From the IMG/VR virus record IMGVR_UViG_2529292882_000009: a DNA stretch of 4,949 bases. One strand, written 5' to 3'. The DNA is from a virus (taxonomy: Duplodnaviria > Heunggongvirae > Uroviricota > Caudoviricetes). Below the pieces are notes generated by a model, which saw only the letters and a list, made by a program, of their open reading frames with translations, was not told the DNA's origin and searched no databases. Shown piece by piece: positions 1 through 4,949 of this stretch. The stretch's first letter is position 1. The number at the start of each line of letters is the position of its first letter. A program made the position numbers and the translations under genes.

Positions 1-52
1 AATCCGCCTTAAATAACAGTTTGTTGCAGTTTTTACAGCGAATTGATTTCAT
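1..52 (-). CDS. com: N-terminal 17 codons (MKSIRCKNCNKLLFKAD) of a small Cys-rich zinc-finger protein resembling phage Mu Com, the translational activator of mom; gene continues beyond the window start
   Basis: Reverse complement of 1..52 reads ATG AAA TCA ATT CGC TGT AAA AAC TGC AAC AAA CTG TTA TTT AAG GCG GAT. AGGAGG Shine-Dalgarno (rc of 57..62) lies about 4 nt upstream of the ATG (rc of 50..52). The CxxC motif at residues 6-9 and the position immediately downstream of the invertase match the Mu gin-com-mom layout as I recall it. Too short for the ORF track; partial. Confidence 0.5.
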   Translation of the reverse strand, partial: MKSIRCKNCNKLLFKAD

Positions 53-134
53 CTCACCTCCTTTGCATCAATTCGCCACTATCTTAAAAAACATCGTGGG
101 TTAAGTGTGGTTATTAGGGCATAATCGATCTGTA
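53..134 (-). promoter_or_regulatory. Promoter/leader region for the Com-like gene (mom-operon-type, activator-dependent weak promoter)
   Basis: On the minus strand: candidate -10 TAAGAT (rc of 81..86), preceded by a T6 tract (rc of 86..91), candidate weak -35 ACCACA (rc of 106..111) with a suboptimal 19-bp spacer, then AGGAGG and ATG. Promoter elements are assigned by eye and by recollection of the Mu mom promoter (poor -35, T-tract in spacer); not experimentally anchored. Confidence 0.4.
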
Positions 135-161
135 TTACCGATCGATTTGATTGATTCGATC
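127..161. promoter_or_regulatory. Cluster of three GATC (Dam methylation) sites within 35 bp, upstream of the mom-type promoter and overlapping the invertase 3' end
   Basis: GATC at 127..130, 140..143 and 158..161, each inside an ATCGAT or CGATCG palindrome. The last two lie inside the final codons of the invertase (stop at 135..137). In Mu, three clustered GATC sites upstream of the mom promoter are the methylation-sensitive OxyR (MomR) repression site (established knowledge, recalled). Confidence 0.5.
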
Positions 162-728
162 GTCGTTTTCTATATGCGTTCGTTTCGCAGGGTGTTTTTT
201 ATACAGAGTTGACAGGGCCACATCGTAGATCAATGCGACCTGCTTGCGGGGGATTCCTTGTGCTAATAAACGCCCGGCCTGCTCCCACTCTGCTTTGGTT
301 AGTTTAGGTGGTCGCCCACCAATACGGCCTTTATTTCTGGCGGCAGCAAGTCCAGCCATCGTTCGCTCGATAATTAGTTCTCGTTCCATTTCAGCCAGAG
401 CACCCATAACGTGGAAGAAAAAACGCCCCATTGGAGAAGATGTGTCTATGTTGTCGGTCAGACTGCGAAAATTAATCCCTCGCTCCCGTAGTTCCCCGAC
501 GAGAGAAATCAGATGTTTCATACTTCGCCCGAGGCGATCCAGTTTCCAGACAACCAGCGTGTCACCTTTTTGAAGGCGCTTTAAAGCGCGTTTTAATCCC
601 GGTCGGTCTGTCTTTGTCCCGCTTAATTTATCTTCAAATATTTGTTCACATCCTGCACAAACAAGAGCGTTTCGTTGCAGGTCTGTATTCTGGTCATTTG
701 TTGATACCCTTATATAGCCAATCAGCAC
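135..728 (-). CDS. gin: Serine-recombinase DNA invertase, Gin/Pin/Cin/Hin family (resolvase-like catalytic domain plus C-terminal HTH)
   Basis: 197-aa ORF; N-terminus MLIGYIRVSTNDQNTDLQRNAL contains the catalytic-serine motif (YIRVST) typical of Gin/Pin/Cin/Hin invertases; C-terminal GRPPK...AIYDVALSTLYKK region matches the HTH DNA-binding domain. Start is GTG (rc of 726..728) with GGGAG Shine-Dalgarno (rc of 736..740) 7 nt upstream. Symbol gin is chosen because of the Mu-like neighbours (Com-like gene, GATC cluster); a Pin- or Cin-type orthologue cannot be excluded without alignment. Confidence 0.95.
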   Translation of the reverse strand: MLIGYIRVSTNDQNTDLQRNALVCAGCEQIFEDKLSGTKTDRPGLKRALKRLQKGDTLVVWKLDRLGRSMKHLISLVGELRERGINFRSLTDNIDTSSPMGRFFFHVMGALAEMERELIIERTMAGLAAARNKGRIGGRPPKLTKAEWEQAGRLLAQGIPRKQVALIYDVALSTLYKKHPAKRTHIENDDRINQIDR

Positions 729-781
729 TCTGGATCTCCCGTTTAAAAGCGCAAATCATGCCATGCAGGCCGGAAACAGCC

Positions 782-1753
782 ATTATCCAAAACCTCGGTT
801 TGCAGGAAACGGTAAATCAGGCTTCTGGCGCATTACAGAAAAAACAGAACGGTGCAGATATTCCGGGAAAAGATACCTTCACCAAAAATATTGGTGCCTG
901 CCGCGCATATAGCGCATGGCTGAATATTGGTGGCGATAGTCAGGTCTGGACAACCGCGCAATTTATTTCGTGGCTGGAGAGTCAGGGAGCATTTAACCAT
1001 CCTTACTGGATGTGCAAAGGCTCATGGGCTTATGCAAATAATAAGGTCATTACAGATACAGGTTGCGGAAATATTTGTCTTGCAGGTGCTGTGGTGGAAG
1101 TTATTGGCACTCGCGGCGCAATGACCATACGCGTTACTACGCCGAGCACGTCCAGCGGTGGCGGAATTACTAACGCTCAATTCACTTATATTAATCATGG
1201 TGATGCTTATGCTCCTGGCTGGCGAAGAGACTACAACACGAAAAACCAGCAGCCTGCATTTGCTTTAGGGCAAACAGGAAGCAGGGTTGCAAATGATAAA
1301 GCTGTTGGCTGGAACTGGAATAGCGGCGTTTATGATGCAGATATCAGTGGCGCATCGACATTAATCCTCCACTTCAATATGAATGCGGGGAGTTGCCCTG
1401 CTGTACAGTTCCGCGTGAATTACAGGAACGGCGGTATTTTTTATCGTTCAGCGCGTGATGGTTATGGATTTGAGGCTAACTGGTCAGAGTTTTACACCAC
1501 GACCCGCAAACCCTCTGCGGGAGATGTTGGTGCATACACGCAGGCAGAATGTAACTCAAGGTTTATTACAGGTATTCGCCTTGGCGGTCTGTCATCTGTT
1601 CAGACATGGAATGGTCCCGGCTGGTCTGACAGGTCAGGTTATGTCGTTACGGGTTCAGTTAACGGAAACCGTGATGAATTAATTGATACAACTCAGGCAA
1701 GGCCAATTCAGTATTGCATTAATGGAACGTGGTATAACGCGGGGAGTATTTAA
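782..1753 (+). CDS. Silent alternative tail-fibre C-terminal variable cassette (S'-like); no start of its own, would be fused to the constant fibre N-terminus after inversion
   Basis: The ORF track extends this frame back to 614, but 614..781 overlaps the invertase 5' end and has no fibre-like sequence. Real homology starts in the inverted repeat, where IQNLGLQETVN (782..814) is identical to the same peptide in the expressed fibre. Gly/Asn/Trp/Tyr-rich fibre-tip composition; ends RPIQYCINGTWYNAGSI, similar to the expressed fibre end. Stop TAA 1751..1753. Confidence 0.8.
   Translation: MIQNLGLQETVNQASGALQKKQNGADIPGKDTFTKNIGACRAYSAWLNIGGDSQVWTTAQFISWLESQGAFNHPYWMCKGSWAYANNKVITDTGCGNICLAGAVVEVIGTRGAMTIRVTTPSTSSGGGITNAQFTYINHGDAYAPGWRRDYNTKNQQPAFALGQTGSRVANDKAVGWNWNSGVYDADISGASTLILHFNMNAGSCPAVQFRVNYRNGGIFYRSARDGYGFEANWSEFYTTTRKPSAGDVGAYTQAECNSRFITGIRLGGLSSVQTWNGPGWSDRSGYVVTGSVNGNRDELIDTTQARPIQYCINGTWYNAGSI
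783..816. repeat. Left inverted repeat of the invertible segment (gix-type recombination site)
   Basis: ttatccaaaacctcggtttgcaggaaacggtaaa is 33/34 identical to the reverse complement of 3825..3858. The first 26 bp have gix/hix architecture: two 12-bp half-sites (783..794, 797..808) around a 2-bp core TC (795..796). Confidence 0.9.
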
Positions 1754-1755
1754 TT

Positions 1756-2289
1756 ATGATGCACTTAAAAAATATTACTGCTGGCAACCCTAAGACAAAA
1801 GAGCAATACCAGCTAACGAAACAATTTAACATCAAATGGCTTTATACAGAGGATGGGAAAAACTGGTATGAGGAACAAAAGAACTTTCAGCCTGATACGT
1901 TGAAAATGGTCTATGACCACAACGACGTTATTATTTGTATTGAAAAGGATGTTTCAGCAATTAATCCAGAAGGCGCAAGCGTCGTTGAGGTTCCTGATAT
2001 TACAGCAAATCGCCGGGCTGATATTTCGGGTAAATGGATGTTCAAAGATGGCGTAGTGATAAAGCGAACTTATACCGAGGAGGAACAGAGGCAGCAGGCA
2101 GAGAATGAAAAGCAAAGCCTGTTGCAACTTGTCAGGGATAAAACCCAGCTATGGGACTCACAGCTACGGCTGGGAATCATTTCCGACGAGAATAAACAAA
2201 AATTAACTGAGTGGATGCTCTATGCGCAGAAAGTCGAATCTACAGACACCTCCAGCCTGCCAGTAACATTTCCCGAACAACCTGAATGA
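1756..2289 (+). CDS. Alternative tail-fibre assembly protein / chaperone (U'-like), currently in the silent orientation
   Basis: 177 aa; starts 2 nt after the S' cassette stop; first ~125 aa closely resemble the 2318..2848 product ([22 protein letters not shown] vs [23 protein letters not shown]; shared [18 protein letters not shown]), with a divergent C-terminal third. Family assignment by position and paralogy. Confidence 0.8.
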   Translation: MMHLKNITAGNPKTKEQYQLTKQFNIKWLYTEDGKNWYEEQKNFQPDTLKMVYDHNDVIICIEKDVSAINPEGASVVEVPDITANRRADISGKWMFKDGVVIKRTYTEEEQRQQAENEKQSLLQLVRDKTQLWDSQLRLGIISDENKQKLTEWMLYAQKVESTDTSSLPVTFPEQPE

Positions 2290-2292
2290 GAC

Positions 2293-2312
2293 AAGGCCCG
2301 ATAGCGGGCCTT
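2293..2312. terminator. Hairpin between the convergent chaperone genes; candidate bidirectional terminator
   Basis: aaggcccg (2293..2300), loop atag, cgggcctt (2305..2312): perfect 8-bp GC-rich stem. Followed on the plus strand by aattttta (2313..2320); flanks are less T-rich for the minus strand. Confidence 0.5.
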
Positions 2313-2317
2313 AATTT

Positions 2318-2848
2318 TTATTCAGGCTTTTGTGGCCATTCTGGCTTTGCCGTATCCACACGGCTGACCAGAACACTGTAGCGTTCCCATGACTCCAGTC
2401 GTGCGCGTTCCTCATCCGTCGCCATATTCAGTCTGACAGCGCGTTCCAGTGGCTGAATAACGTTTTCTGCTTCGGAAAGTAACGCGGCCTTTTGTGATTC
2501 GGCCTGTTGTTGTTGCTCGTCTGCCGTATAAATCCGTTTAACCACAGCTCCGTCCTTAAACATCCACTTCCCTGAATCATCGGCACGACGATTGGCTGTT
2601 ATATCTGGAATCTCAACGACGCTAAAGCCTTCGGGATTAAGCGTTGAGGCATCTTTGGTTATGGCAACAATAATATTATTTTCGTCGTATACAATCTTTA
2701 TGGTGTCGTCCTGAAAGTTATTTACTTCTTCATACCAGTTTTTACCGTCTTCGGACCATAACCAGATAACATCAAAATTCTTTGTTAGCTGATATTGTTC
2801 TTTCGTTTTAGGATTTCCAGACTTAATATTTTTTAAATGCTGCATCAT
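2318..2848 (-). CDS. Tail-fibre assembly protein / chaperone (U-like), in the expressed orientation
   Basis: 176 aa; tandem ATG start (rc of 2843..2848) directly abuts the fibre stop codon (TAA, rc of 2849..2851); AGGTG Shine-Dalgarno upstream; paralogous to the 1756..2289 product. Confidence 0.85.
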
Positions 2849-4354
2849 TTACACCTGTGCGACGTTATACCATGTGCCATTGATGTATTTTTGTATTGGC
2901 CTGAAGATGGCTTCATCATCGCCATCTACTTCACCAATGATTCTTAATCCGGTAATTGCGTGTCCGGCTTTTTCATAACGACCACCACGCGCCATCAATT
3001 GAACAACACGTGTGCCAAGTCGGACATCTCTCACATAGCGTGAGTCAAAATTGCCATAATTGCCGGGAATAACTTGCGCACCACAAAGCCAGTTACCGTT
3101 ATTATCCATGTACGCCTGACCATCGGTGCCATTGGCTGTCCTTGAGTTATTAATCATGTAGATGCCAAATTGCTTGTTCCCCAGTCCACCTATCATGAAC
3201 TTTCGGTCGGCGTGATTCTGGCGAAGTAACGCCTGAGCGCTATCAGTGTTAACTATATTTTTCCCAAAGATAGCGTTGTTATCGCGCATCTGAATCCACA
3301 TACCATTACTGCTGTTAATAGCAAAACGGTCTGAAAGTGTCTCCCCTGAAACATTAAGACCACGCCCCATCGAAACAGCGCCAGTAGCGTTATTAATCCA
3401 TAATGGCCTTAATCCGTTATAAGTCCCCATGTTGTCACCGGAGTTTGTCAACATGAAGTATGTATTTGAACCATCATTACGAATAAAGAATCCGTAATTA
3501 CCATAAGCAATACGTAGGCCGTTTGCTGATTTTGATATGACTTCGCCATTTACAATGGCATTGACAAGAACATACAAAGCATCCCATTTAAGATTCATCA
3601 GGTCTTTTGTTGTGGTGCTCTGGCGGCTTCTCCATTTGAAATATTCATTGCCGTTGTCGCCTGTTTCAAACCACATGTATGAATCAGTGTCGCTGTCGGC
3701 ATCATTTTTAAATCCAATCTTTGCCCAGTCAGTATTCCGAATCCAGGCAAGGATTGAGTCGTTTTCAAAAGTAAGTCCGCCGGACAAGGTATCGCCTGTC
3801 TTTTGAACGGCGTTACCAGCCTTGTTTACCGTTTCCTGTAAACCGAGGTTTTGGATAAACAGCGGCTTATTGGGAATATCTGCTCCGTTCCGGTCTTTTG
3901 CCAGACGGGCATTGGCATTATCCATCGCAATTTTCACCGCTTTTGCGGTGGCTGCCAGCGTTTCACTGAGGCTGTCAGTGGCACTGGTTAGCTGAACGAG
4001 TCCTTTTTTGTTCAGGCTGGCATCATAGATATCCAGATTTTCACGTGCTGTACGCTGTGCTGATGCCCCGGCAATTTTAATTTCGCTGAGGTTATTTTTT
4101 ATCAGCAGCGCGTTATTGCTCATAATGGCTTTAATGGACAGTGCAAGCTGGTTTAATTTTGTTTTATCCGGTTGAATACCGGCTTCTTCCAGCGTGTTTA
4201 ATAACTCCGCCTGCACAATATTAAACCAGTCCATGCCGGGCCATGTGATAACATTATTCCCGTCACCTTCTGAAAACCAGCGAACGATAGCACTACGCTG
4301 GGCGGATACGGGCGGCATGACGGTTACGCCGCTGTCGTTATCAATATAAAACAT
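2849..4354 (-). CDS. Tail-fibre protein (S-like): constant N-terminal part (4354..3859) fused across the right inverted repeat to the currently expressed variable C-terminal part (3824..2849)
   Basis: 501 aa; GGAG Shine-Dalgarno upstream; start ATG (rc of 4352..4354) overlaps the upstream gene stop by 1 nt (TAATG). The inverted repeat encodes FIQNLGLQETVN in frame. C-terminal two-thirds are rich in N, G, W, Y as expected for a receptor-binding tip; ends RPIQKYINGTWYNVAQV. Confidence 0.9.
   Translation of the reverse strand: MFYIDNDSGVTVMPPVSAQRSAIVRWFSEGDGNNVITWPGMDWFNIVQAELLNTLEEAGIQPDKTKLNQLALSIKAIMSNNALLIKNNLSEIKIAGASAQRTARENLDIYDASLNKKGLVQLTSATDSLSETLAATAKAVKIAMDNANARLAKDRNGADIPNKPLFIQNLGLQETVNKAGNAVQKTGDTLSGGLTFENDSILAWIRNTDWAKIGFKNDADSDTDSYMWFETGDNGNEYFKWRSRQSTTTKDLMNLKWDALYVLVNAIVNGEVISKSANGLRIAYGNYGFFIRNDGSNTYFMLTNSGDNMGTYNGLRPLWINNATGAVSMGRGLNVSGETLSDRFAINSSNGMWIQMRDNNAIFGKNIVNTDSAQALLRQNHADRKFMIGGLGNKQFGIYMINNSRTANGTDGQAYMDNNGNWLCGAQVIPGNYGNFDSRYVRDVRLGTRVVQLMARGGRYEKAGHAITGLRIIGEVDGDDEAIFRPIQKYINGTWYNVAQV
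3825..3858. repeat. Right inverted repeat of the invertible segment (gix-type recombination site), inside the tail-fibre coding sequence
   Basis: tttaccgtttcctgtaaaccgaggttttggataa; its reverse complement differs from 783..816 by one base (A vs G, partner of position 802). Core dinucleotide at 3845..3846 (GA on plus, TC on minus) matches the left core. Confidence 0.9.
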
Positions 4355-4896
4355 TAGTTATCTCCGTCATGGTAAACAAATTTATAAATCTGATGCGCGG
4401 GTTTATATTTCTCCAGTAAACATTCCAGCGCACCCGATTCATAAACACGTAACGGCGTCAGAACATTATCCAGCACCGTTGCGTTGCGATAATTTTTAAT
4501 ACCGTAAATATTGACCTGCGTAACCCACTGGCCTTCTGTGGAATCCGTCAGCCTGACGGTAAAACCGTACTGCGCAGCCAGCCATTCATAAAAGCGCCTA
4601 CTCAGATTGCCGGTCATACGCATTTTATTCGCGGCAGCCCGCTGGCGTTCGGACAGGGTGCCGTTTTCGCTGGTACAGTCCGGCAACCCCAGAAATGATT
4701 CCCACTCACCCAGATACCAGCGGGATGTGGACGGGAAACGCTCCCGCAGCATTTGCCGCGCATCATCCGCCGCAGTGGCAATCACGTCGCTGATGGCCTG
4801 CGCCAGCGCAGATAATTTGCTGTCGGGGCTTTTATTCCAGGCAAGCCCTGACGGCAGTAATTGCAGAAAGGCCGTCTGATAGGGTGTTACAGCCAT
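4354..4896 (-). CDS. Phage tail/baseplate protein immediately upstream of the tail fibre (Mu gp48 / P2 gpI / YmfQ-like by position)
   Basis: 180-aa ORF (MAVTPYQTAFLQLLPSGLAWNKSPDS...); GGGGA Shine-Dalgarno 7 nt upstream; start ATG (rc of 4894..4896) directly follows the upstream gene stop (TGA, rc of 4897..4899). Function is inferred from gene order in Mu-like tail modules; I cannot confirm the family from the sequence alone. Confidence 0.6.
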   Translation of the reverse strand: MAVTPYQTAFLQLLPSGLAWNKSPDSKLSALAQAISDVIATAADDARQMLRERFPSTSRWYLGEWESFLGLPDCTSENGTLSERQRAAANKMRMTGNLSRRFYEWLAAQYGFTVRLTDSTEGQWVTQVNIYGIKNYRNATVLDNVLTPLRVYESGALECLLEKYKPAHQIYKFVYHDGDN

Positions 4897-4949
4897 TCAA
4901 TTGTCCCCGGTGTTAACAGTTCCGTATTCTCCGAACGCTGGATCTCTGT
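4897..4949 (-). CDS. 3' end (last ~17 codons, ...RDPAFGEYGTVNTGDN, plus stop) of an upstream tail/baseplate gene entering from beyond the window end
   Basis: Open minus-strand frame from the window edge to TGA (rc of 4897..4899), which directly abuts the next ATG, consistent with a translationally coupled late-gene operon. Identity unknown (baseplate J-like by position only). Confidence 0.35.
   Translation of the reverse strand, partial: RDPAFGEYGTVNTGDN

Follow-up and report, generated by a model that had tools for sequence, protein, structure and literature searches.

A complete G-segment inversion switch at the right end of a Mu/D108-type transposable prophage of Escherichia coli

The window, which is the whole 4949-nt stretch of DNA analysed here and forms one contig of a draft E. 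coli genome, is colinear throughout with phages Mu (NC_000929) and D108 (NC_013594), whose annotations supply gin, S, U, U′, S′ and the boundaries of the G segment. Overall, single-piece blastn puts its nucleotide identity at 94.5% (Mu) and 96.1% (D108); with megablast, the aligned pieces reach 96.1% and 96.2%, respectively. In both annotations, the G segment has gp47/gp48/Sc on one side and gin-com-mom on the other, in the right end of a Mu-type genome, and the window has the same order (gp47-gp48-Sc, gix, Sv-U-U′-Sv′, gix, gin-com-mom). The complete prophage context was seen at further loci (L003–L010). The features are as follows.

1..52, minus strand: com (5′ end), which activates translation of mom; 100% identity with Mu and with D108, Mup54 of the Mu annotation maps here; flanking gene, outside the switch
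135..728, minus strand: gin, serine DNA invertase of the G segment; product of 197 aa; start codon GTG, shared with Mu; Pfam and PDB matches
639..710, minus strand: presumed recombinational enhancer (sis, Fis-binding), gin nt 19–90, at the 5′ end of the gene; placed by homology only
729..782, minus strand: gin-gix spacer; 98% identical to D108, 83% to Mu
783..816, plus strand: gin-proximal 34-bp inverted repeat; gix core 783–808, TTATCCAAAACC TC GGTTTGCAGGAA; crossover TC at 795–796
817..1753, plus strand: Sv′, silent alternative variable C-terminus, in frame from 785; Pfam gp37_C; 97% amino acid identity to Mu S′
1756..2289, plus strand: U′, chaperone (tail-fibre assembly) of the silent cassette; Pfam Caudo_TAP (2e-36); 98.9% amino acid identity to Mu U′
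2293..2312, no strand assigned: GC-rich hairpin at the segment centre, where U′ and U converge; terminator, by terminator scan
2318..2848, minus strand: U, chaperone (tail-fibre assembly) of the expressed cassette; Pfam Caudo_TAP (5e-37)
2849..3824, minus strand: Sv, variable C-terminus now joined to Sc, G(+); Pfam Gp34_trimer
2849..4354, minus strand: S (Sc-Sv), expressed fibre; 501-aa open reading frame
3825..3858, minus strand: Sc-proximal 34-bp inverted repeat; gix core 3833–3858; crossover dinucleotide 3845–3846; 100% identical to Mu
3859..4354, minus strand: Sc, constant N-terminus of S and S′, outside the invertible segment; 99.4% nucleotide identity to Mu; Pfam Phage_fiber_2 repeat
4354..4896, minus strand: flank, Mu gp48 baseplate wedge subunit; Pfam Phage_Mu_Gp48; 99.3% nucleotide identity to Mu
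4887..4949, minus strand: flank, 3′ end of the Mu gp47 baseplate protein (Mu and D108 annotations)

The first-pass annotation had proposed a serine invertase beside a ~3-kb segment, and the gin product bears this out. It contains Resolvase (Pfam, 7e-51) and HTH_7 (2e-17) domains, and its residues 1–193 align to Mu Gin (PDB 3UJ3 and 4M6F) with 98% identity (E 3.5e-124), while the DNA-binding domain of Hin is a weak PDB match. NCBIfam searches matched Gin to sub-threshold recombinase models only, and returned no family-level name for the fibre or chaperone proteins. The protein differs from Mu Gin by four substitutions (V6I, R39K, S93N and A184T) and has in common with D108 a 4-aa extension (197 aa here and in D108 versus 193 aa in Mu). 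It retains the catalytic Ser9, replaced in the crystal form 3UJ3 (S9A), and the wild-type Met114. The roles of both residues in Gin have been described, M114V being a Fis-independent mutant (PMC3575834). The presence of the wild-type methionine suggests that this Gin has a normal Fis dependence.

From nt 17 to 110, gin shows 100% identity with both Mu and D108, and this stretch lines up with the annotated P1 enhancer (cin nt 19–90). Fis sites have been located in gin, ~550 bp upstream of the mom start (PMC3378877). A degenerate Fis-motif scan yielded candidates, but no clean 48-bp pair. The promoter of gin and its ribosome-binding site presumably lie in the gin-gix spacer; a sigma-70 consensus scan found no promoter match for gin, and fewer sites than in shuffles, and an Rfam search gave no match.

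Inverted repeats of 34 bp had been placed at 783–816 and 3825–3858. The coordinates stand, and the match is imperfect: the repeats agree at 33 of 34 positions, with G at 802 set against T (complement A) at 3839. There are exactly two copies of the 26-bp gix core, one on each strand, compared to 0 matches in 200 dinucleotide-preserving shuffles, and the AAACCNNGGTTT core was found at the same two places only. Even when 3 mismatches were allowed, or the core pattern alone was used, there were only two sites, which rules out a multiple-inversion system such as p15B Min or a shufflon. The central TC is the same in both gix sites, and the mismatch falls in one half-site. Compared to Mu, the Sc-proximal gix is identical and the gin-proximal gix differs by A>G at 802 (repeat position 20, inner half-site), a synonymous change (Leu, TTA>TTG).

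Both repeats start at codon position 2 and encode IQNLGLQETVN in both fibre frames, so they do lie in frame inside the fibre gene, as had been claimed. Positions 817 and 3824 are repeat edges and are ruled out as codon starts; the frame that begins at 817 has 23 stop codons. The in-frame start of Sv′ is instead 785 or 818, and reading from 785 stays open.

The segment thus bounded holds two opposed Sv-chaperone cassettes, each in frame with Sc via the repeat. As assembled, the constant N-terminus (4354..3859) is joined to the variable C-terminus at 3824..2849, giving the 501-aa S followed by U at 2318..2848, just as the first reading of the sequence had it. We flipped the segment in silico, taking the central TC as the point of exchange, and obtained an intact 488-aa S′ (Sc-Sv′) followed by U′, in agreement with the second variable C-terminus (to 1753) and chaperone (1756..2289) that had been assigned to the opposite orientation. 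The last 110 aa of S, the Sv tip, are 100% identical to S of phage D6, 95% to P1, 89% to D108 and 69% to Mu, and U has 99.4% amino acid identity to its D6 counterpart and 97.7% to that of Mu. Gene callers mis-annotate the silent cassette, either as a 331-aa open reading frame that begins upstream of gix or under a partial or pseudogene label. Between the cassettes, the central hairpin has folding energies of −16.5 kcal/mol on the plus strand and −14.7 kcal/mol on the minus strand (z −4.7 and −4.0, respectively), with a clear U-tract on the plus strand only; the D108 annotation has one terminator per strand at this position.

Public assemblies of the same prophage show the segment both ways round, and the breakpoints fall within the sites. 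E. coli PEC422 carries this prophage with the segment flipped: it is 99.94% identical to, and colinear with, the in-silico inverted window (3 mismatches over 4949 nt). Its gin and both of its gix alleles are those of the window, and the repeat SNP is relocated to the Sc side. Because the mismatch moves with the segment, the crossover must have occurred within repeat positions 1–19, which include the central TC. The SNP is also a natural tag with which strand exchange could be followed. Two assemblies of E. coli W (NC_017635 and NC_017664) have a precise 3084-bp inversion as their sole difference, and the exact 488-aa S′ is already present in NCBI from several assemblies of E. coli and E. marmotae. 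Using junction searches over 5,426 complete E. coli genomes (coverage at least 80%), we found a G(+)-type junction in 23 and a G(−)-type junction in 12. The expectation that the locus would be heterogeneous in a population thus receives indirect support, the same prophage being found in both orientations across public assemblies.

Taken together, the data supports, with a probability of about 95%, the reading that the window comes from the right end of a transposable E. coli prophage of Mu/D108 type and holds a complete and apparently functional G-segment inversion switch, in the G(+) orientation as assembled. The Mu reference is likewise in G(+). The locus had been assigned to the class of Mu G, P1 C and e14 P. 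That assignment was supported and, as judged from a Mu/D108-type prophage whose Sc, gp48 and com flanks are 99–100% identical to Mu, can be sharpened to the Mu G segment proper. The system had also been called well-described rather than novel, and it is indeed textbook biology that leaves the understanding of Gin-type switches unchanged.

By analogy with the known system, inversion would proceed as follows. Gin dimers would bind both inverted 26-bp gix sites and, together with host Fis on the enhancer in the 5′ end of gin, would come together on supercoiled DNA as a synaptic tetramer. This complex would cleave at the central TC/GA via Ser9, swing one subunit pair through 180 degrees and religate, so that ~3.05 kb become inverted. 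Late transcription is expected to come in from Sc, outside the invertible segment, and only the cassette joined to Sc would then be made (S and U here, S′ and U′ after a flip), with the central hairpin probably stopping transcription. We infer that the S and S′ fibre tips recognise different lipopolysaccharide cores, in which case a lysogen population would give phage of two host ranges. The tips, including the D6/P1-type tip of Sv, would be expected to set which hosts an induced phage can infect. The main relevance is to annotation and assembly: as the inversion is programmed, assemblies of one strain may show either orientation.

The window departs from Mu in two respects only: it is mosaic, its Sv tip being identical to that of the P1-like phage D6, and it has the synonymous gix polymorphism. 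It is unlikely, though somewhat less so than the alternatives that follow, that the unequal gix sites (802 A>G) alter the rate or bias of inversion and, in a Mu backbone that bears an Sv tip of D6/P1 type, make this a Mu variant with changed switching and a changed G(+) host range.

A switch that is complete in structure could nevertheless be frozen, and fixed in G(+), by the 802 polymorphism, by the Gin substitutions and four extra amino acids or by prophage decay. The repeats do carry one mismatch, and the authors who described SfMu thought that a single repeat mutation might abolish that phage's inversion (PMC4406740). Here, however, the SNP is a synonymous one, at a distance of 6 bp from the crossover dinucleotide; D108 too has gix variants of its own. 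All 8 of the 8 loci found by exact S protein are G(+), which is a consequence of the selection, and the intact S′ fusion has been deposited from several assemblies. The identical Gin protein is present on 161 contigs. PEC422, only 3 SNPs per 5 kb apart, is inverted while carrying identical gin and gix, so at least one inversion has occurred with exactly these alleles. We therefore consider a frozen switch very improbable.

It is less probable still, to the point of being nearly negligible, that the two orientations arose without Gin, through homologous recombination by the host, with either the 34-bp repeats or the U/U′ arms (70% similar) as substrates, or as assembly artefacts. The enzyme cannot be named from sequence comparison alone, but an intact, Mu-identical invertase system adjoins the segment; the segment contains internal inverted homologies (I1, I3), but the breakpoints lie within the 34-bp repeats, outside the internal U/U′ homology, and the SNP confines the exchange to repeat positions 1–19, the central TC among them; and short-read assemblers can orient a segment across a 34-bp repeat arbitrarily, but both states are present among complete closed genomes. 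A match of 33/34 bp is, moreover, close to the lower length limit for RecA to recombine efficiently, or under it, which also counts against inversion without Gin.

When the invertase and fibre proteins were aligned with their counterparts in Mu and P1, part of a check proposed in the first-pass annotation, Gin was 98% identical to Mu Gin, with which it shares the GTG start, and only 77–78% identical to Cin, while Sv′ and U′ had their 97% and 98.9% identities to Mu. The C segment of P1, P7 and D6 with Cin shares the switch logic and has homologous Sv/U/U′/Sv′ cassettes, and in P1 the annotated enhancer lies in the 5′ end of the invertase gene, where the presumed one of gin would also fall. However, the invertible segment of P1 is ~4.26 kb (annotated at 32225–36480) compared to 3.05 kb here, P1 S is much longer than the S of the window, and the P1 segment is flanked by P1 genes (lydC and others), whereas the flanks here are Mu genes. 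A P1-type C segment or P1/e14-type element was rejected on these grounds: the invertase is at 77% to Cin versus 98% to Gin, the flanks are those of Mu, and the likeness to D6/P1 is limited to the Sv tip and U.

By description, the switch also resembles Hin/hix of Salmonella and Pin of e14, which are Fis- and enhancer-dependent small serine invertases whose 26-bp sites share the same consensus. For Hin, the mechanism of inversion has been described (PMC3798978). Unlike the system in the window, which exchanges a coding 3′ end, Salmonella Hin inverts a promoter.

An ORF list and repeat search of the window reproduced the switch anatomy proposed in the first-pass annotation:

Features of the window (ORF list, except where marked)
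1-52, minus strand: 5′ end of com (Mu/D108 annotation)
135-728, minus strand: gin, ORF of 197 aa
783-816 and 3825-3858: 34-bp inverted repeat (repeat search)
end at 1753, plus strand: open frame, variable C-terminus Sv′
1756-2289, plus strand: chaperone U′, ORF of 177 aa after the Sv′ frame
2318-2848, minus strand: chaperone U, ORF of 176 aa directly after S
2849-4354, minus strand: S, ORF of 501 aa

Mu and D108 annotations mapped onto the window follow com with gin, a G-segment boundary, the S′ variable part, U′, U, S, a second boundary inside S, gp48 and gp47. The inverted repeat has a single mismatch (802 G versus the complement of 3839), and its similarity extends weakly inward (58 bp at 81%) because related codons open both variable parts. 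Its 26-bp core, the gix site, occurs exactly twice in the window, on opposite strands (0 matches in 200 shuffles), and the core pattern AAACCNNGGTTT is found at the same two places and nowhere else in the window. The repeat is in frame in both fibres, as had been claimed: both copies start on the second base of a codon and encode IQNLGLQETVN. Positions 817 and 3824 mark the edges of the repeat and do not start codons. Further inverted similarities in and around the segment (839-864/3873-3898, 1752-2102/2499-2849 and 1700-1739/2863-2902) reflect paralogous cassettes, not additional crossover sites. The N-terminal halves of U and U′ are 70% similar, RPIQ..INGTWYN is common to the C-terminal ends of Sv and Sv′, and an NGADIP..F..N.G fibre-repeat motif lies on both sides of gix in the S′ fusion.

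The invertase was correctly assigned to the Gin type. It carries Resolvase and HTH_7 domains (Pfam), aligns end to end with the Mu Gin structures 3UJ3 and 4M6F (E about 1e-124) and is 77-78% identical to the P1 and D6 Cin proteins. Compared to Mu Gin, it differs by V6I, R39K, S93N and A184T and by four extra C-terminal residues, an extension common to D108 and the window, where G at position 149 converts the TAA stop of Mu to CAA. The Gin nucleophile is Ser9, and changing Met114 to Val makes Gin Fis-independent (PMC3575834); both residues are wild type here. The Fis sites are placed inside the coding sequence of gin, about 550 bp upstream of where mom starts (PMC3378877). In the P1 record the annotated Cin enhancer spans cin nt 19-90, and its counterpart in the window, gin nt 17-110, is identical to Mu and D108; the window's enhancer is presumed to lie here, as placed by homology only. 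Scanning with a degenerate Fis motif yielded candidate sites but no clean pair 48 bp apart. Within window 127-170, around where gin ends, GATC sites at 127, 140 and 158 fall in the regulatory region upstream of mom.

The pathway is established for Gin (PMC3575834) and Hin (PMC3798978). At this locus, Gin dimers would bind the two gix sites, the Fis-bound enhancer would activate formation of a synaptic tetramer, Ser9 would cleave both strands of both sites, and one subunit pair would rotate by 180 degrees before religation. Because of the locus anatomy, only the cassette linked to the constant N-terminus, Sc, is expressed. The host-range consequences of the Mu switch are summarised in PMC4406740, and we infer the receptor specificities of the window's two tips.

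We inverted the segment in silico by flipping 795-3846 at the central TC. The Sc frame now continues across the repeat into Sv′, yielding an intact 488-aa S′ with U′ two bases on, and deposited E. coli and E. marmotae assemblies already include this exact S′ sequence. A 700-bp query across the predicted G(-) Sc junction matched E. coli PEC422 at 100% identity. PEC422 is colinear with the inverted window over its whole length, with 3 mismatches; the uninverted window splits into three alignment blocks, that for 783-3858 lying on the opposite strand. Since the gin and gix alleles of PEC422 and the window are identical, inversion has occurred with exactly these alleles. A switch frozen in the source strain is therefore unlikely, given the inverted segment in PEC422 and the deposited S′ fusions. 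The repeat mismatch is also swapped, the G allele adjoining Sc and the A allele adjoining gin in PEC422, and exchange therefore took place within repeat positions 1-19 (the central dinucleotide is positions 13-14). RecA-mediated inversion or an assembly artefact as the source of the opposite orientations is highly improbable in view of the breakpoint locations, the short repeat and the intact invertase system adjoining the segment.

As a same-strain control, we compared the two E. coli W assemblies in RefSeq, whose Mu prophage is 96%-related: NC_017635 and NC_017664 differ by a precise, 100%-identical 3084-bp G-segment inversion. Among 5,426 complete E. coli genomes, Sc junctions at coverage of at least 80% were G(+)-type in 23 genomes and G(-)-type in 12. 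The data thus confirm a complete Gin-type invertible tail-fibre switch, an interpretation supported by its anatomy, its Mu identity and the flipped PEC422 copy. The locus is the Mu G segment itself, already-known biology, and only minor mosaic and polymorphic variation is new.

Several observations concern the expressed and silent cassettes. The expressed S′ of PEC422 (L011 4393-5859) has a TGG to TGA nonsense change, W399*, at the equivalent of window position 1483, and RefSeq labels the gene a pseudogene with an internal stop. In E. coli W, the silent-cassette annotation switches with orientation between 'tail fiber protein' and partial pseudogene. Gene callers annotate the silent Sv′ cassette as a 331-aa ORF (window 758-1753, plus strand; 12602-13597 in the related prophage L003) whose ATG lies 25 nt upstream of gix, in a frame open back to 614, within gin; it is probably an annotation artefact rather than a gene.

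Megablast against phage genomes gave colinear full-length matches to D108 (96.2%) and Mu (96.1%). In a three-way alignment, identity to Mu is 99-100% for Sc, gp48 and com; the segment interior is mosaic (87-97%) with a strongly diverged patch at 2801-3100. Over the whole S protein, identity is 92% to Mu and 95% to D108, and its final 110 aa (2849-3181, minus strand) are 100, 95, 89 and 69% identical to D6, P1, D108 and Mu, respectively. U is 99.4% identical to that of D6, a P1-like plasmid prophage, and Sv′ and U′ match Mu at 97-99% identity. These identities therefore indicate a Mu backbone whose receptor-binding G(+) fibre tip is D6/P1-type, and imply that Mu G and P1-type C segments have exchanged cassettes. 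Pfam assigned Phage_fiber_2 and Gp34_trimer to S, gp37_C to Sv′, Caudo_TAP to both chaperones and Phage_Mu_Gp48 to the flank.

The convergent chaperone genes are separated by a GC-rich hairpin (2293-2312) with folding energies of -16.5 (z -4.7) and -14.7 kcal/mol (z -4.0) on the two strands and a U-tract on the plus strand only; D108 has terminators annotated on both strands at this place. An Rfam search of the window gave no match.

The window is 100% identical to L004 9406-14354, from scaffold JH768571.1 (GCA_000261385.1), and is exactly one contig of that scaffold, between N runs of 905 and 710 bases, the assembly having broken inside the prophage on either side of the switch region. A gene for this exact S protein is carried by 18 contigs. 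The same 4949 bases recur with 2-3 differences in six other strains, each time within a complete Mu-type prophage at another chromosomal site, and the host genes beside the near-identical prophage (L003, L005-L010) differ from strain to strain: fxsA/aspA, the frv region, the hpa operon, entD/fepA and aroA/serC. Such different chromosomal sites are expected of a transposing phage and fit recent Mu-type transposition.
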